Part shown: in pieces, positions 11,490-38,249 of the stretch
Numbering within the stretch: position 1 is the stretch's first letter
Layout of the letters: each line of letters begins with the position of its first letter
Origin: an uncultured bacterium
GTDB lineage: Bacteria > B130-G9
DNA: 64,000 nt
NCBI GenBank assembly: GCA_965372715.1
Contig: CBDVDH010000013.1
Span: 1-64,000, forward strand
Direction of reading: 5' to 3'
Notes under the pieces: model-generated
Told to the model about the DNA's origin: nothing
What the model saw: the letters and a program-made list of their open reading frames with translations, nothing else
The model's database searches: none
Position numbers and translations under genes: made by a program

Positions 11490-12935
11490 ATGACATCACA
11501 ATCGAAGCTGTTGCGGCAAATACCGGCCGTTGAGCACCTCCTGCAAACGCCGCAGGTTAGCGCCCTTTTTTCTCAGGCCGAAAGATCGGTGGTGTCTCAT
11601 TGCGCAAGCGACGTGCTGCGGCGGGTTCGCGCCTCGATTATCTCAGGTGAGGACCAGGAGGTTTGGTTCATTCAACATGATGCTGAGAAACGGCTCGACG
11701 AGGCGGCCTTGCTTGATGCGATAGCCCGAAAGTTTGACGAGGCGGTCTCTTGCAGTATGCGGCGGGTCGTGAACGCGACGGGCGTTATCATCCATACGAA
11801 CCTGGGCCGGTCGGTCTTACCGGAGGAGGCCGTCGAGGCGGTGATGATGGCGGCGTCGGGCTATAGCAGTCTTGAGTATGACCTCGAGCAGGGAGCGCGG
11901 TCGAAGCGCTGGAAGCACGTGACGGCTCCCCTCGTGAGCCTGTCCGGCGCCGAGGACGCCCTCGTCGTCAACAACAACGCCGCCGCGGTGCTCGTTAGCC
12001 TAAACACACTTGCCAGCGGCAAGGATGTCATCGTCTCACGCGGCGAGCTGGTGGAGATAGGCGGGAGCTTTAGGATGCCGGACGTGATGGTGGCGTCAGG
12101 CGCGATCCTTCGCGAGGTCGGCTCAACCAACAAGACCAAGCTCGCCGACTACGAGCGCGCGATCACGGACAACACGGCGCTTATCCTCAAGGTCCACACG
12201 AGCAACTACAGGATTGTCGGCTTCTCGCAGGACGTCCCAAGCAAAGAGCTCTCGGCCCTGAGCAAGAGGTTCAACCTCCCGTTCATGGTCGATCTCGGCA
12301 GCGGACTCCTGGTCGGCAGAGACTCTCTGCCCTTGCCTGACGGCATGGAGCTCGACGAGCCTGTCGTGCGCGATGTCGTTGCTGATGGGGCGGACATCGT
12401 AACCTTCAGCGCCGACAAGCTGCTCGGCGCCTCGCAGGCTGGCGTCATCGTCGGCAGGGGCGAGCTCGTCCAAAGGATCGCCAAGAACCCGCTTTCAAGG
12501 GCGATGCGCATCGACAAGCTCTCGCTGGCGGCCCTCGACGCAACGCTGAGGCTTTACGTGAAATGGCCGACCCGGGTCCACAAGTTCATCCCGTCGCTCT
12601 CGATGCTTACGACGCCGCTTAGTGCCATCAAAAAGAGCGCTCAGAGAATCAGGCGCCGGATTCAGTCGGTGCTTGACGACAGATTCCGGGTCGAGATCGA
12701 GCCCGGCGCCTCGAAGGCCGGGGGCGGGTCATTGCCGCTTTTGGAGCTGCCAACGATGCTTGTTGCCGTTTCGAGCCAGGAAATATCCGCTGACGCGATT
12801 GAGAAAGCGCTTCGCGCGGCGCCAGTTCCGGTGATTGCCAGGATCGCCGAAAACAAGGTCCTGCTCGACCCAAGAACGCTGCTGGAAGACGACATTGATG
12901 CGGTAGTTGACGCATTCCGTTTCGTGACACAATAG
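11490..12935 (+). CDS. selA: L-seryl-tRNA(Sec) selenium transferase
   Basis: VNATGVIIHTNLGR, VNNNAAA, SRGELVEIGGSFR, DLGSG, FSADKLLG. Confidence 0.97.
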   Translation: MTSQSKLLRQIPAVEHLLQTPQVSALFSQAERSVVSHCASDVLRRVRASIISGEDQEVWFIQHDAEKRLDEAALLDAIARKFDEAVSCSMRRVVNATGVIIHTNLGRSVLPEEAVEAVMMAASGYSSLEYDLEQGARSKRWKHVTAPLVSLSGAEDALVVNNNAAAVLVSLNTLASGKDVIVSRGELVEIGGSFRMPDVMVASGAILREVGSTNKTKLADYERAITDNTALILKVHTSNYRIVGFSQDVPSKELSALSKRFNLPFMVDLGSGLLVGRDSLPLPDGMELDEPVVRDVVADGADIVTFSADKLLGASQAGVIVGRGELVQRIAKNPLSRAMRIDKLSLAALDATLRLYVKWPTRVHKFIPSLSMLTTPLSAIKKSAQRIRRRIQSVLDDRFRVEIEPGASKAGGGSLPLLELPTMLVAVSSQEISADAIEKALRAAPVPVIARIAENKVLLDPRTLLEDDIDAVVDAFRFVTQ

Positions 12936-28692: not shown

Positions 28693-29496
28693 TTATGGCC
28701 CAATCCTGAACGACGCAGGATCAAGGTCAGCGTTGACCTCAGGATCAGCAAACGAGATACGAAGCGACTCGCGGCGTTCAGGGACACTGATCGTAACGAT
28801 ACGAGGCAGGCGGCAGCGCACGCCGTCTCGCCCGGTCATATCCCTGAAGTCAACGTACAGCGCCTCGACAGCGGGTTCGTCATCGGGTGTGGACTCGAAG
28901 ACGAATCTCTCAACATCCTGCTTGCCCGGGCGCTGCTTGACCCACAACGTGATGCTCGCTTGATGGTCTTGTAGCTCAAGCCTGACTCTGTTCTTCGCCT
29001 CTCGAGATGACTTACTGACGACGACAGAATCGTGCGACAGCGGGGGAAAGCCTAAGACCATCGAGACGAGCCATTCGGGGGTCAGTCCAAGAAACGAGAG
29101 CGTTGAGCCGGACGCGTCTGCGCTTAGGAGCCGTATCTCATTGTTCTTACCGATTTCGCTGAATGTCTTGCCATCGAATGCGACGACATGACGGGGGTGT
29201 CTGAACGGGCCTAAGAACTCTATTCTGAAGCGATTGGGGCGCTGAAGAAGCACTGCGACCGAGGCCCGGTATGCCCGCCCTTGAGAGATGAGCATCAGCC
29301 TCGCAAAGGAGCGCAACGTCCTGACTTTCGCCTGGTCCGAGGCCAGTCTCTCAGCGATCAGCTGCGCCTCGTCCGTTGGGAGCCTCGCCTGTCTCTGCGT
29401 GCTCAGCAGGCTGCAACCAAGACCGAAAAGCGGAATGACGACGAATAAAACGTGAAGCCGAGTGAGGCGCACTCGCCGCCTAGCGCACCGATGCAT
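28693..29496 (-). CDS. LolA/LolB-fold lipoprotein (DUF4292-like)
   Basis: lipobox GLGC; RPNRFRIE..GPF; sits between the TPR gene and ispE where lolB usually lies. Confidence 0.7.
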   Translation of the reverse strand: MHRCARRRVRLTRLHVLFVVIPLFGLGCSLLSTQRQARLPTDEAQLIAERLASDQAKVRTLRSFARLMLISQGRAYRASVAVLLQRPNRFRIEFLGPFRHPRHVVAFDGKTFSEIGKNNEIRLLSADASGSTLSFLGLTPEWLVSMVLGFPPLSHDSVVVSKSSREAKNRVRLELQDHQASITLWVKQRPGKQDVERFVFESTPDDEPAVEALYVDFRDMTGRDGVRCRLPRIVTISVPERRESLRISFADPEVNADLDPASFRIGP

Positions 29497-30787
29497 CTTG
29501 GGAGGCGCCGGTCGCCTTTTTCTCGGACGGAATCACTGGAGATATAGAGAGCTCACGCAGGAGTTTATGGACGGCCGGGTCGTCCGATGACGCGGACTGG
29601 ACAATCTGGAGGTATTTCTTGGCTTCTTCTGATTTGCCCGCTTTGCGATAGGCGAGCGCGAGATGGCCACAGATTATTAGCTCGGAGGAAGGGTCCTTGA
29701 GGCCGGCAATCGCCTTTTCTAGGTATTCTACAGCCGCGCCTATGTCACCGAGCTTATAAAGGCCCCAGCCGAGGCTGTCCAGGAACGCGGAGTTATGAGG
29801 CTCAATTGCCAGCGCTGCCCTTACGAGCGAAATGCCCCTTCGCAGCTTCATGCCCCTGTCAATATAGATGTAGCCCAAGTAGTTAAGCGCTGCCGCGAAG
29901 CTGGGCTCAATCTTGATCAAGGTCTCCAGTTGCTCGACCGCCTCATCTATTCTGCCGGCCTGCTCCATGAAGCCGGCAAGAAAGAACCGGAACTGGGGGT
30001 CCTTGGGCAACCGGGCAACCGTCTTGTGTGCCAAGACAATTGCATCCTCGAACAGCTTACACCGCTGGTATGCCTCGAAAAGCTGGGTTGTCGTGTGTAA
30101 GTCCCCCGGGTGAGCGGCCACGACCGCCTCAAGGTGCGGAATCGCCTTTGCCGGCTCACCGATATTCAAGTATAGTCGGCCCAAGGAGAAATCCGCGCGA
30201 AGCGAATCGGGCTCAATCTTCTTCAGCTTGTTGAGCTCGAGGATCGCCTCATCATATTCTCTGGCCAGCCTGAGTAGTTCGGCTATCGTGAACCTAAGCG
30301 TTGCCTCGTCAAAGCCGAGCTCCGCGCCCCGCCGGTAATCTCGAACGGCTTCAGGGATTCTGAGGAGCATTCTGTGCGCATCGCCGCGCAGGACGTAAAC
30401 TTCTGCCATTTCAGGGGACTTGGCGATGGCGGAGTTGAGCTTCTCAATCGCGTCGTCGAGCCGGTCCTCCTCAACAAGGACGCGAGCCTGCTCGAAATCT
30501 ATATATCCGCTCTCTGGAAGGCGGGAACCAGCCTTTTGGAGTTCCTCCAAAGACTTGTCCAGCTCGCCGCGCAGTCCGAACAACTGACCATAGCAGTAGA
30601 GCGTGTATGCTTCCGCCAGCGAAACCAGCTCCGGCGAGATTGTAGAACTGCTGGCAAACTGACAGCCCCGAACCGACGAGCTCGCCGGAAGCTCCTCGGT
30701 CGGTCTGTTGAAAGACGAACAGGACATAATCACCCATGAGAGGGCGATTATGCCCAACGAAAACAATACCCTTCTTGGTCGCATCAT
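29480..30787 (-). CDS. tetratricopeptide repeat lipoprotein
   Basis: lipobox IMSC, TPR repeats, ALNYLGY...AFLDSLGW. Confidence 0.9.
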   Translation of the reverse strand: MMRPRRVLFSLGIIALSWVIMSCSSFNRPTEELPASSSVRGCQFASSSTISPELVSLAEAYTLYCYGQLFGLRGELDKSLEELQKAGSRLPESGYIDFEQARVLVEEDRLDDAIEKLNSAIAKSPEMAEVYVLRGDAHRMLLRIPEAVRDYRRGAELGFDEATLRFTIAELLRLAREYDEAILELNKLKKIEPDSLRADFSLGRLYLNIGEPAKAIPHLEAVVAAHPGDLHTTTQLFEAYQRCKLFEDAIVLAHKTVARLPKDPQFRFFLAGFMEQAGRIDEAVEQLETLIKIEPSFAAALNYLGYIYIDRGMKLRRGISLVRAALAIEPHNSAFLDSLGWGLYKLGDIGAAVEYLEKAIAGLKDPSSELIICGHLALAYRKAGKSEEAKKYLQIVQSASSDDPAVHKLLRELSISPVIPSEKKATGASQDASVR

Positions 30788-30940
30788 CCTGCAGAATCAC
30801 TTACGGGAATGGCCTGGCCTTAGAACAGATTCTTGCTGTTAACTAACGTTCACAACACATACCGCGAAAAACAAGCCCCTCACCCGGAGCTTGTGCGGCG
30901 ACTGCTCCTCTCACAGACCCTACCCACCAATAATACTATA

Positions 30941-33151
30941 CTACCTTGAAAGTTCTTTTCGTGCAACTTTTGTGTTGCCGCACGCGTCCTCTACCCGAAT
31001 CGACAAGAAATGCTCCGCACCTTCAAGCACCGGCGTCTTTATCTCGAACTTCTCCACCTTGCTGTCCAGTATTCCGTCTTTGGGCCGCAATACTCTGAAT
31101 TGACCCAGGTCGATAGCGAACGCCCCCGCCGCAATGTTGCTCGTCTCGTCCGTGATCGTGCCGGACACCAAGAACGCGCCGTCCGAAAGTCGCTTGACGC
31201 GATTGAACTTGATGACTGGGGCGGTGTTATCGACCACAAACTCGTCGCTTTCCTCGTCCGAGCACAACTTGTCCGAGGCAGGATTGCTCAGACCATCGCA
31301 GGCCACGACCTTGACGAGATACTCGCCGTCCGAGAGCACGCTCGTGTCAATCACGCTGAAAGTCAGCCGCGTCTCGTCGGTCAGCGGTTGCCAATCGCCG
31401 TCTTTGGGCCTCAAAAACACCGAGTACACAAGGTCGTCGCCGTTAGGATCGCTGGCCTGCCAGGTTACCGCTCTCAACATCTCTGTGTTGTCTATGTCCG
31501 AGAACTTGTCGAGGAGATTGAGGTTCTCATACTTGGCGGCAACCCCGTGCGCCTTGGCAGAGCGGATGACGCTGGATAGGTCCTCGCCCGCCTCGTGAAC
31601 GGCTATCTTGTCAACCTTCGGCGGCAGATTGACCTGGGTGTATGAAATAGCCGCTCTGTCTAAAGCGGGGGATGAGGCGCTTTTGCTCTTCGATAGGACT
31701 GCCTTGTACTGAATGTATCGAGCTTCGGGACTTGGGCACTCGCTGCCGCTTGCATCCTTCAATGGGCCTTCCCAATCGGTCCAGGACTCGTCAACCTCAG
31801 AGACATCTCCCGACCTCGTGAACAGCTGAACCTTCGCGCCACTCGGGACTGTCGCCTCCCAACTGACTTTGCCCCACTTGGCACGGGACGAGGCGTCCTG
31901 AACAGTGGACACGAGCTTGCCCTCCAGTTCCATCTTGGCGGGAAAGAGCTGGAACACGTGTGCTACCTCCGATGTGCCGAGCGCAAACCCGCCACCCGAC
32001 GTCCTGCACGCCGAGATGAACTTGGCATCCTCAACCGCTCGCAATAGGTCCGCGTCGCCGTCCTTGTTCATGCGCACCACGACGCCCTCGTCCTTGCGGT
32101 ATCCGAAGACTAGCAATCGCCCCTCGTGCCAATCCATGCAATAAAGCGAGCCGTTCTCGCTGGTGAATATCCGCTCGGTGCGTCCGTCCGCGTATATCCG
32201 GTAGACGGCGGATTTGCCCCTCGATGGCTTGGGAGGCTTTACCTGGGGTTTTGATTTCGGCACGCTGCTGGTGCGTTTGCTCATCGCTGCACTCATTGCG
32301 GCCTGAAGCGCCTCGGGCATAGAACTCATGTCCGGAGGCTCCGGAGGGCTTGGAGGCCCGGGAACCGGGGCGGCGGCGCCAACGCTGCCCAGCGCAAGAA
32401 CGAAGAGCTCACTGCCGTCGATAAGTATCGACCTGATCTCCGCCCCGCTCGCCTCCAGGTGCGCCTTCGGTTTGCCAGAACCCGAGAACGAATAGACGAC
32501 GCCTGACGAAGTGCCAATCAAAAGCCGTTTTCCGGAAACATCGAACGTGAGCGAGGTGATGTTGGGCGCGCCAAGCTCGAGGATTGCCTCGCCCTTGCCA
32601 GGCCCGGTTATTCTGAAGACCTTGCCATTCGGCCCGGTCCCGGCGTATATCTCGCCCTTGGGACCAGACGCAAGCGCCCAGACATATTTCTCGCCGGTCT
32701 CGAAGAGTTTCGTTGCGATGCCACTTGTGCGGTCAATTCTCAAAACGATGCCAGAAGGCCCGGTCCCGATGTAGAGCCTGTCCCGGGAATCGACGAGAAC
32801 TGAATGTATCTGTTGTTCTCCAGAGTCGTAGAGGACCTTCGGCTCGGCTCCGGGGCTCAATACGTAGAGCTTGCCCTCGTCGCCAGTGCCAGCGTATATG
32901 GCGCCGGACTTGTCGGCGGCGACCGCCCACACTTGCGATTCCTTAAGGTCGGCGGTCCTTTCGAGCTCTACCGAGAGGATTATCTTGCCCTCGTCCGTCA
33001 GCGTAACGCCGTCGAGCTCGCAGCCGTCAAATTGTCCCTTACCCTCCGTTACGAACTCGTCCGAAGAAGTTGCGTGCGCGGGAACAGCTCCAAGCAGAAG
33101 GCAGCACGTCAGGACAACGGAGCCAACGTATCTAGAACTCATCAAAGCCAT
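30941..33151 (-). CDS. secreted beta-propeller protein with C-terminal FN3/Ig-like domains
   Basis: signal peptide; repeated YAGTG..G.VY blades; TRSG...W..W, WQASDPNGD, DNTAP. Confidence 0.8.
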   Translation of the reverse strand: MALMSSRYVGSVVLTCCLLLGAVPAHATSSDEFVTEGKGQFDGCELDGVTLTDEGKIILSVELERTADLKESQVWAVAADKSGAIYAGTGDEGKLYVLSPGAEPKVLYDSGEQQIHSVLVDSRDRLYIGTGPSGIVLRIDRTSGIATKLFETGEKYVWALASGPKGEIYAGTGPNGKVFRITGPGKGEAILELGAPNITSLTFDVSGKRLLIGTSSGVVYSFSGSGKPKAHLEASGAEIRSILIDGSELFVLALGSVGAAAPVPGPPSPPEPPDMSSMPEALQAAMSAAMSKRTSSVPKSKPQVKPPKPSRGKSAVYRIYADGRTERIFTSENGSLYCMDWHEGRLLVFGYRKDEGVVVRMNKDGDADLLRAVEDAKFISACRTSGGGFALGTSEVAHVFQLFPAKMELEGKLVSTVQDASSRAKWGKVSWEATVPSGAKVQLFTRSGDVSEVDESWTDWEGPLKDASGSECPSPEARYIQYKAVLSKSKSASSPALDRAAISYTQVNLPPKVDKIAVHEAGEDLSSVIRSAKAHGVAAKYENLNLLDKFSDIDNTEMLRAVTWQASDPNGDDLVYSVFLRPKDGDWQPLTDETRLTFSVIDTSVLSDGEYLVKVVACDGLSNPASDKLCSDEESDEFVVDNTAPVIKFNRVKRLSDGAFLVSGTITDETSNIAAGAFAIDLGQFRVLRPKDGILDSKVEKFEIKTPVLEGAEHFLSIRVEDACGNTKVARKELSR

Positions 33152-33195
33152 CGTTTTGTCTCCCAGGTTGAAACAAGATGCAGCCGGTTGGCTGT

Positions 33196-35091
33196 TCAGT
33201 ATTTCCTCGGTTTGATCTGTATTGTGAGCTTCTCTTTGCCGCTTAGGTTGAAATCGGTGTCAAATGTCAGTTTTGCTAGGACCTCGAAGTTCGCCTGGTC
33301 CAGAGTCTCACTGGAAGCCGCCGACGACAATATAGCCCTGGCCGAGGCGGGTAGCTCCGGCAGCGGCTCCCGACCGCGCATGGTGAGGCGGCGCCTTCTG
33401 GCAAGAACGACCAGGAGCTCCCGGTGGCTAGGCGCCTCAACCAACATATCGACCACGTCGTCGTAGCTGTTGGCCTTGAATCTCGCCCTTGCCCGGGTGT
33501 GCTCCCACATTTGGTAGGCGTCGGCGCCAAAGACCATCAACTCGGCTTGACCAGGCTCGCAGGACTTCGGGATCGGGACCTCGAACGTCAGCGTCTCTTT
33601 CTTGCCCTCGAAAGGCTGGACGCCGACGTTCAACCGAATGCTCTCTCCCTGACGCACACGCTTCCCATCAACGTCGATGGAGACGATATTCGCTAGGTCC
33701 ACCGATTGGCTAACCTTGAGCCTCATCTCGACGCTATCCACCCGCACATCCTCGAAGCCATTGTCTATTATCGCCGCGAATGATTCTCTCAGGTAACTCC
33801 TGAGGCAGCTCGTCCAACCTCATCCGAATCCATAATCGAAGTTAGAATACGAATCGGTCAGCTCGATAGGTGCTCGATCTTTGACTGCGATCAGGATTTG
33901 CCAGTCAAGCGTCAGCATACCCGAATCATGTTGATAGGTGTAAACGCAGTAGTCGGCAACAAGGGCCAACAGAAGAGGCGTGAAGTATCGATCCCTGATA
34001 GTCTCAAAATGGAATTTGCGCGACTTATCTGAAGCCGCATTGGCAAGCCAAACTTCCGCCGGCAGCAAGTCTGGTTGTGCGCCTATCTTGCCCGCGATGG
34101 CAGAAGACCTATCCTGAGTTATCACACCCAGTGGCTGCGACGCACTGGTCATTTTATAGCTGTAAAAATAGCTTGGGAAACCTGTGTGGACGATGCCGCT
34201 GCACATCGGGTAACTCACGCTGCCCGCGTTATAGGCGGAATGTCCGTAGGCCAGGATCGTGTCGCCGTCGATGTAGGTCAGCGTCCCCATTCCAGACAGA
34301 TTCATGTCGCCGGTGACCAGGACACTGCCCAAAGGGCAGCCCGGGCAGAGCGACTCGGGAGATACCACGACCGGGTCCGGGGAGCTAGAATGAACACCTT
34401 CAAAGCCAAGGTTCCCTAGTAGATCACTAGCGCCGGCCCAGCTCGATACAAAGGAAAGAGGTATGGGGCGAAGCTTAGCGCCGGCGAGCTGGGAAAGCAG
34501 CGGGATGCCAGAAGCCAGGGCTCCCGAAATCTCAATCCCGGTGCTGTCCTGGCCAAAGTTCTTAATAGCATCCATCCGAAGAGGCAGCCGAAACCGGCCT
34601 CTCTCATCCAGGTAGGGCTCAAGACCGGCGGCCTGAGCGGCAAAAAAGCCTCCTGAGCTTCGTTTTGATTCAGACGTGACCGGCGCCTCGAGCACCCTCA
34701 ACATCTCCTCAATTGGTGTGATGCCGCCTATGGGTTCCTTCTCGGCAAATCCGCCATACGATAACGCCCCGATTAGCTTCCCGTTCACGTAACATGGGCT
34801 ACCGCTCATCCCATGAAGTATCCCGAACCTCTTGAACTTGTCGTCTGTGCCGAGGAACAGGATACCGTAACTCTGTGGCCCGGTTCCTTCCACACCCAGT
34901 ATCTCGAATGTGAGTCGCTCGGGTTCAAAGCCCTTCAGCGTCGTGAGGCAATACCCCGTCATGCCGGGCTTGATGTCGGAAACGGGCATGATGTCCACGC
35001 TTGCCGCAAGCGCCGCCGAAGCGAAGATCAGAACGCCCAGGAAAGCGCCAATCAGATTTAGAATCGGTCTGTATCCGCGTGTTGCAGCCAT
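33196..35091 (-). CDS. SpoIVB/peptidase S55-domain protein, 631 aa if the in-frame TGA at 33820-33822 is read through (possible Sec) or a nonsense pseudogene
   Basis: GMSGSP, AYGH motifs; ORFs 33820-35091 and 33196-33747 share a frame and are joined by ...YGFG*GWTSCLRSYLRESFAAIIDNGFEDVRVD with no other stop. Confidence 0.85.
33788..33804 (-). promoter_or_regulatory. candidate bacterial SECIS hairpin
   Basis: CUCAGG-AGUUA-CCUGAG perfect 6-bp stem; loop begins 21 nt after UGA with G at loop position 2 followed by U. Confidence 0.5.
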
Positions 35092-36648
35092 CTACGTTCG
35101 AGCCTCTTTGTTCGTTGGTGTGTTCTGACTAGGCGCCGGGACAGAGCCGTGCTTTGACAAACGCCTCGTGCTTTCGCTGGCACACAGCTTCGCCTGGGCC
35201 TTCGCCTCGTGCTTGACGTCTGACTTCGAGCCAAATATCCAGTGCCAGCCAATCGCGACGCCGCTCTTGAGGAACTTGACGAGCGCGTCCCAACTTTGAA
35301 TCTGTCCTAGATACGAGATGACGGTCTTCGGTCTCATATAGAATCGCCTCAGCGCGTTGCTGTATGCCTTGTCCAGCTCCTCAGCGGTCCATCCATGCGG
35401 GACAAAAACCACCTTGTGCTTGTTCATGTCGTGCCAGTCGCCGATCACCTCGCCATATCGCTCGATGCCCTCGGTGATCGGAGCGCCCGGGAACGGCACA
35501 AACAGGTGCATCTGAAAGTCATCTACGTATTCCTTGAGCGCAAACCGAACAGTCTCCTCCAGTTCGTCCTTGGTCTGCGTCGGCAGACCCGCCATGTAGT
35601 AACCTCTTGTCCTGATCCCGGCTTTGTGGGTCGCGTGAAGCGCCTGCCGCACCTTGTCGAGGTTTGTCCCCTTCTTGACGAAGTCGAGAAGCCTCGTGGA
35701 GGCAGCCTCAAGTCCATAAGAGATCTGCCAGCAGCCCGCTCTCTTGGCGAGCTTCAGCATCTCCTCGTTGACCAAATCGACCCGGGACACGCATGTCCAG
35801 GTTACGTCCATCTTCTCCCGGATCATACCCTCGCATATAGCGTGGAAACGTTCCTTGGAGAACGTCATGTTGTCGTCGTAGAACTTGAGCTCGCGTATCC
35901 CATATTCCCTGATCAGGCGCCGTATCGCCTCCAGAACGTACTCGGCGCTGAAGAACCTGATCTTGCTGCCGAAGACGTTCTTGGAGCAGAAGGTGCATCG
36001 GGCGGGACAGCCTCGCGTCGTGTAAAGCGCCGCGACCGGAAGCCTCCCGAAAGAGTGCGCCGGCGGCGTGTATATCTCAGGGAAGTGCTCTAGAAGGTCC
36101 CACGCCTGAAGCGGGAGATGATCGAGGCTGTCAAGATACTCACGAGGAGGCGTGCGATAAGTGCCGTTCTCGCCGCGCAGAATCAGGCCGTTTACGCTAT
36201 CAAATGCCCGCTCGCAACGGAACGCCTCCATCAACTCGAGTATTGTAACCTCGCCCTCGCCGATCGAGCCTACGTCAAACTCTGGGTAGCGCCGCATCGT
36301 CTCTTCGGGGACCGCGGAGAGGTGCGGGCCTCCGATTGCGACCTTCACGGTGCTGTCCGCCGCCTTGACGCCGGCCGCAAAGTTCGCCGCGTTGCTGATC
36401 GAGAGGGTGACGGCCGTAACGCCAACCACGCTCGGTTTGTGCGATAGGGCCTTCGCTATCGCCTGCTCGTAAGAAAGGCCCTGCGCCTCGGCATCGACGA
36501 TCGCCGTCTCAATACCGGCCTGCCTTGTAACGGCTGCCAGGTTCAGAAGCCCTAGAGGCGCGACATTATTGCTCGTCTGCTGGAGGTAGCAGTATTGCTC
36601 CCAGGACGTAAGGGGTGGATTTACAAGGACCAGTTCAGTCACGCTCAA
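35092..36648 (-). CDS. B12-binding domain radical SAM protein
   Basis: PLGLL, GGPH, IGEGE, TRGCPARCTFC. Confidence 0.92.
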   Translation of the reverse strand: MSVTELVLVNPPLTSWEQYCYLQQTSNNVAPLGLLNLAAVTRQAGIETAIVDAEAQGLSYEQAIAKALSHKPSVVGVTAVTLSISNAANFAAGVKAADSTVKVAIGGPHLSAVPEETMRRYPEFDVGSIGEGEVTILELMEAFRCERAFDSVNGLILRGENGTYRTPPREYLDSLDHLPLQAWDLLEHFPEIYTPPAHSFGRLPVAALYTTRGCPARCTFCSKNVFGSKIRFFSAEYVLEAIRRLIREYGIRELKFYDDNMTFSKERFHAICEGMIREKMDVTWTCVSRVDLVNEEMLKLAKRAGCWQISYGLEAASTRLLDFVKKGTNLDKVRQALHATHKAGIRTRGYYMAGLPTQTKDELEETVRFALKEYVDDFQMHLFVPFPGAPITEGIERYGEVIGDWHDMNKHKVVFVPHGWTAEELDKAYSNALRRFYMRPKTVISYLGQIQSWDALVKFLKSGVAIGWHWIFGSKSDVKHEAKAQAKLCASESTRRLSKHGSVPAPSQNTPTNKEART

Positions 36649-36701
36649 CCTCTAACACTAGCGCCGAAAACACGAATGAATTGCCAACTTGCCGCTCAAG
36701 A

Positions 36702-38249
36702 CTAGTGATAGACCGTTTCCCGACTGGCTTCCTCTTCGTAGGGAGCGTCGGCGACAATCTCGCCGGGACGGGCGTCCAACATGCCTTTATCACGAGCCTG
36801 TTCAATCAGAATGTCCATCCCATTAACATAGGTGAAGTTCTTGAGGGTATCAAACAGCTTGAAGCCGTTCCTGCGGCAGAGGGCTAGGTACCTGAAAAAC
36901 CTGATAATGAAGCGGTGCTTCTGGTACCAGAACTGCGAAAAGACCTTTCTGAGGGTAACGCCCGTGAGAACGCGGGTCTGGAACCAGCCGATCGTCCACG
37001 GGCCTATGTAGGGCGTCGTGATGAACGAGATGCGCGTTATATCGACAACCTCCTTGTCCCATCGATTGCCCATCCTGCCCCCTAGCTCCTTGAGCTTGTC
37101 AACTGCCTTCGTGCCCGGCAGTGGTTTCCACACGTGGAAGACCGTTGTCTCCGCCTTGATCCGGCGCGCGAGCTGCTTGGTTTTTCTCAGGCTCTTGCGC
37201 GTTTCCCCAGGGCCGCCAACGCAGAAATAGGTCGTGAGGGACAGGTCGTATTTGTCGCACAGATCGACTGCGTAATCAATCTGATCGTCCGATAGCTCCT
37301 TCTCATAGACCTTGTTGCGGATGAACTCGTCGCCGCTCTCGATGCCGGTCCTTACCTTCACACAGCCAGTCTCGTGGAGTAACCTCGCTCTCTCCTCGTC
37401 CAACTCATCGATACGCAAGTAGATCGAGTAGGGCAGCCTGCCAACAAGGTCGAGCCGGTCGTATTCCTCCAGGAACTTGCGCATCCACGTGCGGTTGATG
37501 GTAAACACAGGGTCCCACATCCAGGCTATCTTGAAATAAGGCCCCCGCCAGCGGTCCCAAGCCTCGCGCACCTGCCTGGCATAGACCACGGGGTCCAGGA
37601 ACCTCATCCCGATCCCCACTTTCTTCCTAATAACTGTCGCGGAGCAATACGTGCATCCGTGGGGGCAGTTCCGTTGGCCGATGAACGGGAACATCTGGAA
37701 TGTCTCAAGATGCTTGTCGAAATCACACCAGAACTTCCAGTCCGGCGCCGGAAGCTCCGCGAGGTCCTCAATGGCCGGCCTAATGGGGTTTTCCACCACA
37801 GTGTCGCCATCCCTAAACCAGACGCCTTTCAGGCCCTCGAGGCTCATCCCGGACTCGAGCCTATCAAGATACTCCTCGGCAACGTATTCGCCGTCGCCTA
37901 TACATATCGCATCGATGTCAAGCTCGTCGAAAACCTTCCGCTGCGTGATCGTAGCGTGATGTCCGCCGCCGATGACCTTGACCGAGGGATCGACCTTGCG
38001 AGCCTCACAGATGATTTCCTGTGCAGAAAAGCCGTGCGTGCTGAGCAGAGTAACGCCGATCACATCGGGCCTGAAGCGGAACATCTCTCGCCTGAGCCGC
38101 TGCCGCCAGCTGTTGCGGCAAAACGCAAAGTCCAGGATCCTTGCCTGATGGTGGGTGCGCTTCACAAGGAACGTTGCTATTGAGACCAGGCCGATGTTTA
38201 TCGTGAAATACTCGCCGCCTGTCGAAGGAGTTACTAATAGTAAACGCAT
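36702..38249 (-). CDS. B12-binding domain radical SAM protein
   Basis: GGGHHAT, CIGDGE, RNCPHGCTYC, GIESG. Confidence 0.92.
   Translation of the reverse strand: MRLLLVTPSTGGEYFTINIGLVSIATFLVKRTHHQARILDFAFCRNSWRQRLRREMFRFRPDVIGVTLLSTHGFSAQEIICEARKVDPSVKVIGGGHHATITQRKVFDELDIDAICIGDGEYVAEEYLDRLESGMSLEGLKGVWFRDGDTVVENPIRPAIEDLAELPAPDWKFWCDFDKHLETFQMFPFIGQRNCPHGCTYCSATVIRKKVGIGMRFLDPVVYARQVREAWDRWRGPYFKIAWMWDPVFTINRTWMRKFLEEYDRLDLVGRLPYSIYLRIDELDEERARLLHETGCVKVRTGIESGDEFIRNKVYEKELSDDQIDYAVDLCDKYDLSLTTYFCVGGPGETRKSLRKTKQLARRIKAETTVFHVWKPLPGTKAVDKLKELGGRMGNRWDKEVVDITRISFITTPYIGPWTIGWFQTRVLTGVTLRKVFSQFWYQKHRFIIRFFRYLALCRRNGFKLFDTLKNFTYVNGMDILIEQARDKGMLDARPGEIVADAPYEEEASRETVYH

Follow-up and report, generated by a model that had tools for sequence, protein, structure and literature searches.

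We examined a 64,000-nucleotide (nt) stretch of DNA from an uncultured bacterium of the B130-G9 lineage (assembly GCA_965372715.1, contig CBDVDH010000013.1, positions 1 to 64,000 of the forward strand; hereafter the window), in which one reading frame with a single internal UGA codon encodes a multi-domain, secreted protein resembling serine peptidases. We refer to the genome that carries this gene as G000, and to the gene as S55-like, after its partial resemblance to the SpoIVB peptidase (S55, PF05580); coordinates are those of the window, on the minus strand unless stated. On translation, the complete gene (33196..35091) is one frame of 631 codons, UGA included, an extent that also agrees with a PF05580 match, an AlphaFold2 (AF2) model, and stop-free homologs. 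Its sole internal stop is the TGA at 33820..33822, codon 424, in the context ..DYGFG-U-GWTSC.., where U is the proposed selenocysteine (Sec); the terminal stop, at 33198..33196, is also TGA. Listing of open reading frames (ORFs) yields two separate pieces, 33820..35091 (423 amino acids) and 33196..33747 (183 amino acids, with an internal GTG start), and yet stop-free, full-length homologs of 627 amino acids align across the UGA site on both sides. Fifteen nt past the UGA lies a small RNA hairpin (33788..33804), and selA, encoding selenocysteine synthase, is found ~21 kb from the UGA on the plus strand (11766..12881; PF03841, 480.6 bits). The initial annotation of this DNA had noted the single 631-codon frame, its lone TGA, the hairpin, and the distance to selA, and every one of these elements proved correct on recheck. 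In the genome as a whole, TGA accounts for 45% of long-ORF stops (623/1372), and 17 of these 623 TGA-terminated ORFs continue in frame for at least 200 codons.

The in-frame TGA is kept in relatives. Our phylum sample comprises seven species genomes, each with one copy of the S55-like gene. Three of them, from two genera, have exactly one in-frame TGA in a frame that is otherwise open over 631-637 codons: G000 itself, G004 (same genus, 77% protein identity to G000), and G005 (another genus, 64% identity). The gene has no in-frame stop in the remaining four. Around the TGA, the three read YGFG-U-GWTSC-LRSYLRE (G000), HGFG-U-SRASC-LRSYLRE (G004), and YGFG-U-SRSSD-LRSYLRD (G005). Eight of the ten metagenome loci returned were examined and six reach the UGA site; one of the six (L022, which is G004-like) has both TGA and hairpin, and five are without them. 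Among 16 close protein homologs, the window's own product excluded, four end exactly at ..GFG, at 423-426 amino acids (89, 70, 68, and 63% identity), and the others run through and are five residues shorter at the site (YSY-----xxF). Contigs of two public sequencing runs also keep the TGA, one near-identical to the window (X1) and one ~87% identical with G004-type codons after the TGA (X3); these are contigs of low share that hold no depth or expression information. The TGA is thus retained at the homologous codon in G000, G004, G005, L022, and both run contigs, and every DNA copy seen with a stop at this site has TGA, never TAA or TAG. The initial annotation had named a standard residue at this column, or loss of the hairpin among close relatives, as counter-evidence; the relatives instead either keep the TGA and the hairpin or lack an entire five-residue insertion that contains the site.

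The part of the gene downstream of the TGA evolves as a coding sequence. The ratio of nonsynonymous to synonymous substitution rates (dN/dS) over the 207 codons past the TGA is 0.18 for G000/G004 and 0.046 for G004/G005, and over the 417-422 codons before it 0.18 and 0.08, respectively, with dS towards G005 saturated. The first canonical in-frame start after the TGA lies at codon +25 in G000, +18 in G004, and +16 in G005, positions that do not align, and codons +14 to +23 differ between G000 and G005 by five synonymous changes with the amino acids kept. Because there is no aligned start and because these changes are synonymous, the stretch right after the hairpin appears to be translated. The AF2 model of the protein (predicted local distance difference test score, pLDDT, 85.6; predicted template modelling score, pTM, 0.84; mean pLDDT 62 for the block 421-430) places residue 424 in a loop (418-426) between a strand (409-417) and a helix (427-442), inside a continuous fold. 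According to the model, a break at residue 424 would cut a domain.

The hairpin is the proposed upper stem-loop of a selenocysteine insertion sequence (SECIS). It consists of CUCAGG (33804..33799), the loop AGUUA (33798..33794), and CCUGAG (33793..33788), forming a perfect 6-bp stem with a 5-nt loop that starts 21 nt past the UGA and has G and U at loop positions 2-3, and it is identical in G000, G004, G005, and L022. The 15-nt spacer between UGA and hairpin (33805..33819) codes for residues that vary among the three genomes (GWTSC, SRASC, and SRSSD). In the bacterial SECIS (bSECIS) model, a stem-loop lies just 3' of the UGA, with its apical loop 16-37 nt away and a G in the first two loop positions. 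The S55-like hairpin has the distance and the loop G of this model, and the same criteria recover the hairpin of the selD gene described below. A possible lower stem, in which 33809..33805 pairs with 33777..33773 across a 10-nt one-sided internal loop (33773..33809 overall), receives weak support from RNAalifold. An Rfam scan of positions 33500-34100 at permissive E-values returned no SECIS family, and a single chance match to a snoRNA (E = 7.6).

The hairpin also codes for LRSYLR, the start of helix 427-442, so its conservation has to be read against that of the protein. Over the whole gene, codons for the same amino acid are identical between G000 and G005 in 39% of cases. The six hairpin codons (CTC AGG AGT TAC CTG AGA) do not differ among G000, G004, and G005; five of the six are six-fold degenerate, and between G000 and G005 no other stretch of unchanged codons in the gene is as long. 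At the nucleotide level, CTCAGGAGTTACCTGAGAGA is the sole 100%-identical window among 1815 windows of 20 nt in this pair, which shares 64% protein identity. In homologs that lack the TGA, the amino acids at this stretch differ (FRDYLR, FVSYMR, FMGYMG, and others). As judged from this pattern of conservation, the hairpin is constrained as RNA.

The genome has the machinery to decode UGA as Sec. Besides selA, it encodes selB (score 315 bits, cut-off 242), a tRNA-SeC (anticodon tca), and selD, so the check for selB, selC, and selD proposed along with the initial annotation came out positive for all of them. selA and tRNA-Sec occur in all seven phylum genomes, and because of this the co-occurrence of the TGA form with the Sec machinery is uninformative. 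Two other genes of G000 serve as controls. The first is selD, which carries an in-frame TGA of its own (contig C97:359-1414; ..VSGAG-U-AAKIG) with the hairpin AGGUC/CGGGU/GACCU 11 nt past the UGA. All six phylum genomes with an identified selD keep its TGA (selD went undetected in the seventh, G001, whose completeness is 83%), and the hairpin is nucleotide-invariant across the phylum bar one loop change. The second control is a secreted protein of 469 amino acids with a CxU motif (APCG-U-K) and a C-terminal cytochrome c554 domain (contig C18:40191-41597, minus strand). Its hairpin CUUGCU/GGUCG/AGCAGG lies 18 nt past the UGA and is invariant bar one G-to-A change (U.G to U-A), and the TGA is present in six of six phylum genomes covering the site. 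This protein is similar to two rows in the table of PMC9312934, "UshA-like, CxU" and "cytochrome c family, pfam13435". Set beside the hairpins of the two controls, a comparison that for selD the initial annotation had also suggested, the S55-like hairpin shares their architecture, with G at position 2 of a 5-nt loop on a 5-6-bp stem, and their pattern of conservation.

When the genome was screened for a TGA with a hairpin and with coding potential on either side, 26 candidates emerged, 19 of which were run against Pfam; the screen required a perfect hairpin of at least 5 bp and does not amount to a full selenoproteome. The S55-like gene, selD, and the CxU protein are credible, and most of the other candidates look, by Pfam, like neighbouring or fused genes or like extensions that lack support, and not like selenoproteins. 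The sole molybdopterin oxidoreductase found (contig C5:76054-77133) has no in-frame stop, so there is no Sec-containing FdhA for comparison. Since no other such enzyme was found, the genome seems to be without Sec-FdhA, the commonest bacterial selenoprotein, and few proteins appear to depend on its Sec machinery.

Altogether, codon 424 is probably a genuine site of Sec recoding with an intragenic SECIS in an S55-like gene. The central proposal of the initial annotation, a candidate selenoprotein, is supported by the kept TGA, the low dN/dS downstream, the invariant hairpin, and the complete Sec machinery. From established bacterial Sec decoding, we infer a mechanism in which the CUCAGG/AGUUA/CCUGAG hairpin, located 15 nt past the UGA inside the coding sequence, would act as the SECIS element. 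SelB with Sec-tRNA(Sec) would bind the hairpin and bring Sec to the ribosome paused at the UGA, and translation would go on through the C-terminal 207 residues to give a 631-residue extracytoplasmic protein. SelB binding, Sec insertion, and its efficiency are all predicted steps. As to what the Sec does, we can speculate that its role is in redox chemistry, in metal binding, or in selenium-dependent control of the amount of full-length protein.

Several observations weigh against Sec at this site, and the first group concerns the RNA. In the possible lower stem, which has five pairs, two pairs are compensatory and one is broken in G005, as seen by RNAalifold with only three sequences. The upper stem shows no covariation, because it never varies. 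Folding of 65 nt gives no exceptional stability (z = -0.91): of 200 shuffled sequences, 37 fold just as well. When a hairpin is defined by a stem of at least 6 bp with at most one G-U pair, a loop of 3-10 nt, a G in the first two loop positions, and a loop start 16-37 nt past the stop, one follows 103 of the 1372 long-ORF stops in the genome (7.5%), or 25 of 1372 (1.8%) if G-U pairs are disallowed. Within one genome, the hairpin is hardly more than chance, and the case rests on the comparison with relatives. The S55-like loop, AGUUA, is A/U-rich, compared with the G-rich loops of the two controls (CGGGU and GGUCG). Finally, the hairpin contains AGGAG, a Shine-Dalgarno-like sequence, with an in-frame CTG 4 nt later.

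The second group concerns the protein. U424 lies within a five-residue insertion (GFG-U-x-x-x-S-x) that is confined to a sub-lineage and forms part of a surface loop, outside the catalytic barrels. All 101 full-length homologs have a gap at the U column, so that none has a Cys there, and in the whole segment that aligns with residues 413-434, a Cys occurs in only one of them. Nearly all selenoproteins have Cys homologs, according to PMC12013277, and an insertional site without them is therefore atypical for a selenoprotein. Nor is there a conserved partner for the Sec within the loop: the initial annotation had suggested a bridge to the Cys five residues on, and this residue is Cys in G000 and G004 and Asp in G005. 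In our phylogeny, which is a quick tree only, the TGA forms share a clade with one full-length non-TGA form, P0002 (Shimodaira-Hasegawa-like approximate likelihood ratio test, SH-aLRT, 91). Because this non-TGA form groups with the TGA clade, the insertion, as read from the tree, was either gained once and is dispensable, or was lost once.

Some of these points would fit a site where the UGA is read through infrequently by a standard near-cognate tRNA (Trp, Cys, or Arg) or mainly terminates, giving a 423-residue form along with a minor 631-residue form, with the hairpin modulating termination and not binding SelB. Read-through without Sec is compatible with the kept TGA, the hairpin, and the selection downstream, and the absent Cys homologs and the atypical loop would suit a position where the chemistry of the residue is irrelevant. 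We nonetheless regard this as unlikely: a complete Sec system is present, hairpins of the same size and position occur in two other genes of the organism, and dN/dS downstream is as low as upstream, arguing that the full-length form matters. To our knowledge, no hairpin-driven mechanism of UGA read-through without Sec is established in bacteria.

The AGGAG within the hairpin raises a different explanation, in which the UGA is a true stop and the C-terminal ~200 residues are made separately by reinitiation at AGGAG, for example at the in-frame CTG, after which the two parts assemble. All three genomes keep both AGGAG and the in-frame CTG, and reinitiation would account for the selection downstream as well as for the nucleotide conservation around AGGAG. 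A block of strong divergence between G000 and G004, possibly recombinational (see below), ends at the TGA, as if there were two separate units. However, CTG is rare as a start, a spacing of 4 nt is short, and the AGG of the putative Shine-Dalgarno sequence is paired in the stem. Canonical starts do not offer an alternative, as none is aligned among the genomes (+25, +18, and +16), and it is the entire 17-nt palindrome that is conserved, not AGGAG alone. The stop at this site is TGA in all DNA copies seen, though TGA ends only 45% of long ORFs, and the stop-free homologs are single chains, in which a break would fall inside what the model predicts to be a folded domain. Weighing these points, we consider separate translation of the two parts improbable.

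An inactivating nonsense mutation (a pseudogene) or an error of sequencing or assembly, which the initial annotation had held quite possible, and which the split by the gene caller could suggest and a single genome alone could not exclude, is contradicted by the recurrence of the TGA in genomes of three species, in a metagenome contig, and in contigs from both public runs, and by purifying selection on an intact downstream frame of 207 codons (dN/dS 0.05-0.18 at saturated dS); as the TGA is kept across relatives, we judge such an error or a recent mutation very unlikely.

If codon 424 is indeed decoded as Sec, its insertional position raises the question of how it arose. One scenario is that Sec arose de novo and not by Cys-to-Sec exchange, with a UGA-bearing insertion in a surface loop and the LRSYLR codons recruited as the SECIS. 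The site might then be mainly a selenium-dependent gate that sets the ratio of 423- to 631-residue protein, with a regulatory and not a catalytic Sec, and the SECIS might have been the crossover point for exchange of the divergent block between lineages. We put this scenario forward tentatively and consider it doubtful as a whole.

We turn now to the scaffold that would carry the Sec. The protein begins with a signal-peptide-like segment (residues 1-30, 35002..35091), indicated by its sequence and by a hydrophobic helix at residues 8-27 in the AF2 model, with a putative cleavage site at ..AALA/AS... PF05580 matches residues 31-112 with 30.2 bits against a cut-off of 25, covering profile positions 109-192 of 210. 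For profile positions 1-108 there is no match in sequence, and some structural alignments extend to residues ~290-330. Comparison of the profile with the SpoIVB structure 9lnf gives E = 1.4e-11, and structural comparison with 9lnf gives a Foldseek probability of 1.0 over 118 columns and a VIA Z of 7.7. Structure searches align residues 30-139 with the barrel that bears the Ser in proteases of the chymotrypsin fold, among them HtrA/Deg and viral 3C (Z 7-8.5). Within this barrel, Ser96 (codon 34804..34806), in the motif GMSGSP, is invariant in 102 sequences and aligns with the Ser378 position (GMAGAP) of the SpoIVB S378A structure 9lnf, and is thus the presumed nucleophile. The presumed catalytic His is His284 (codon 34240..34242; ..LAYGH), an invariant column located after the Ser in the chain.

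The initial annotation had called the protein an S55/SpoIVB peptidase. This is true in part, as the match to PF05580 and SpoIVB is limited to the Ser-bearing half-barrel. The invariant D262, H284, and D327 all follow Ser96 in the chain; the SpoIVB equivalog model TIGR02860 scores 22.6 bits, far under its cut-off of 305.25; and a Pfam scan of the protein found no PDZ domain. For these reasons, we describe the protein as S55-like and not as a SpoIVB ortholog. Searches with the whole structural model explain only residues 30-139, plus ~250-330, as a barrel of the chymotrypsin fold. For residues 354-462, which bear the Sec, and 464-630, the matches (Z 6.0 and 5.8, respectively) did not rise above the noise level stated for the tool and were set aside.

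The whole family of ~600-amino-acid "S55 domain" proteins has the Ser motif ahead of the invariant Asp and His. In SpoIVB, we take the order to be the His236 barrel first and then Ser378, and on this assumption, the ~600-amino-acid family may have a circularly permuted version of the S55 fold seen in SpoIVB. Four cysteines of the S55-like protein, Cys48, Cys100, Cys252, and Cys297 (GYCLT, GSPCY, PGCPLG, and PMCSG), are fully or almost invariant among close family members and not in relatives of 25-30% identity; they may form disulfides or a metal site.

The closest precedent that we found comes from a metagenome study of the Global Ocean Sampling (GOS) data (PMC2398784), where Sec was predicted in secreted serine proteases of trypsin-like and MucD-like type; these also stand in the table of PMC9312934. 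The initial annotation had placed the S55-like gene outside known selenoprotein families, and this needs to be narrowed: Sec in serine-protease scaffolds had already been predicted, and it is the S55-like scaffold itself that does not appear in the family lists searched. The GOS families share with the S55-like gene an in-frame UGA with a SECIS-like hairpin, a secreted serine-protease fold, and no known redox function, and they too are known from sequence only. In contrast, the column of their Sec holds a conserved Cys in homologs (9 with Sec and 128 with Cys, and CxxU in the MucD-like proteins), compared with an insertion and 0/101 Cys homologs here, and their scaffold is trypsin (pfam00089) or HtrA.

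SpoIVB itself shares the GMSGSP serine motif and the Ser-bearing beta-barrel with the S55-like protein. Unlike SpoIVB, which has no Sec, the S55-like protein has ~300 extra C-terminal residues and His284 after the Ser, and its family consists of ~600-amino-acid proteins in lineages that, by homolog names, are non-sporulating. The organism's own selD and CxU cytochrome-c554 genes are alike in having a UGA followed 11-18 nt on by a 5-6-bp hairpin with a 5-nt loop and G at position 2. They differ in belonging to listed selenoprotein families, with the Sec in a Cys-type motif, and in having the TGA in every genome covering the site, compared with three of seven for the S55-like gene.

The closest named homologs of the protein are labelled Candidatus Coatesbacteria. 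In the literature searched, which did not extend to the BSepDB family table, we found no S55-like or SpoIVB selenoprotein and no report on selenocysteine in Coatesbacteria. The main texts of PMC13188914, PMC12013277, and PMC13326102 do not contain "peptidase", "protease", or "S55", and PMC9312934 does not contain pfam05580. If the present reading is true, an uncultivated phylum has a new selenoprotein family whose scaffold is secreted and resembles the S55 serine peptidases, and the gene is a rare case of Sec without a Cys counterpart. Searches for Cys/Sec pairs, the main SECIS-independent method, are blind to such genes, which suggests that catalogues may miss insertional Sec sites. In every genome of the clade, gene callers split the S55-like gene into a 423-amino-acid protein and a C-terminal fragment.

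The S55-like gene sits in a conserved cluster (29480-38249) with the order radical SAM, radical SAM, S55-like, beta-propeller, TPR. Upstream, the stop codon of a gene for a B12-binding radical SAM enzyme (35092..36648) abuts the ATG of the S55-like gene, and a second B12-binding radical SAM enzyme is encoded at 36702..38249. Downstream lies the gene for a 736-amino-acid beta-propeller (Reg_prop) protein (30941..33151), which is paired with an S55-like gene even in a relative of ~30% identity (L029). Every phylum genome and metagenome contig of sufficient extent has this gene order, whether its S55-like gene carries the TGA or not.

Comparison of G000 with G004 shows that divergence within this cluster is mosaic. 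A block of approximately codons 61-420 (33835..34911), whose 3' edge abuts the UGA and hairpin, shares 45-82% nt identity with the same-genus G004 (locus L003). Outside the block, in the radical-SAM gene, the first ~60 codons, the last 207 codons, and the propeller gene, identity per 60-nt window is 80-100% and mostly >90%. Amino acid identity is 70% in the block compared with 92-95% in the flanks, and dS is 1.19 compared with 0.20. This pattern suggests that the peptidase module was replaced by recombination or has diversified.

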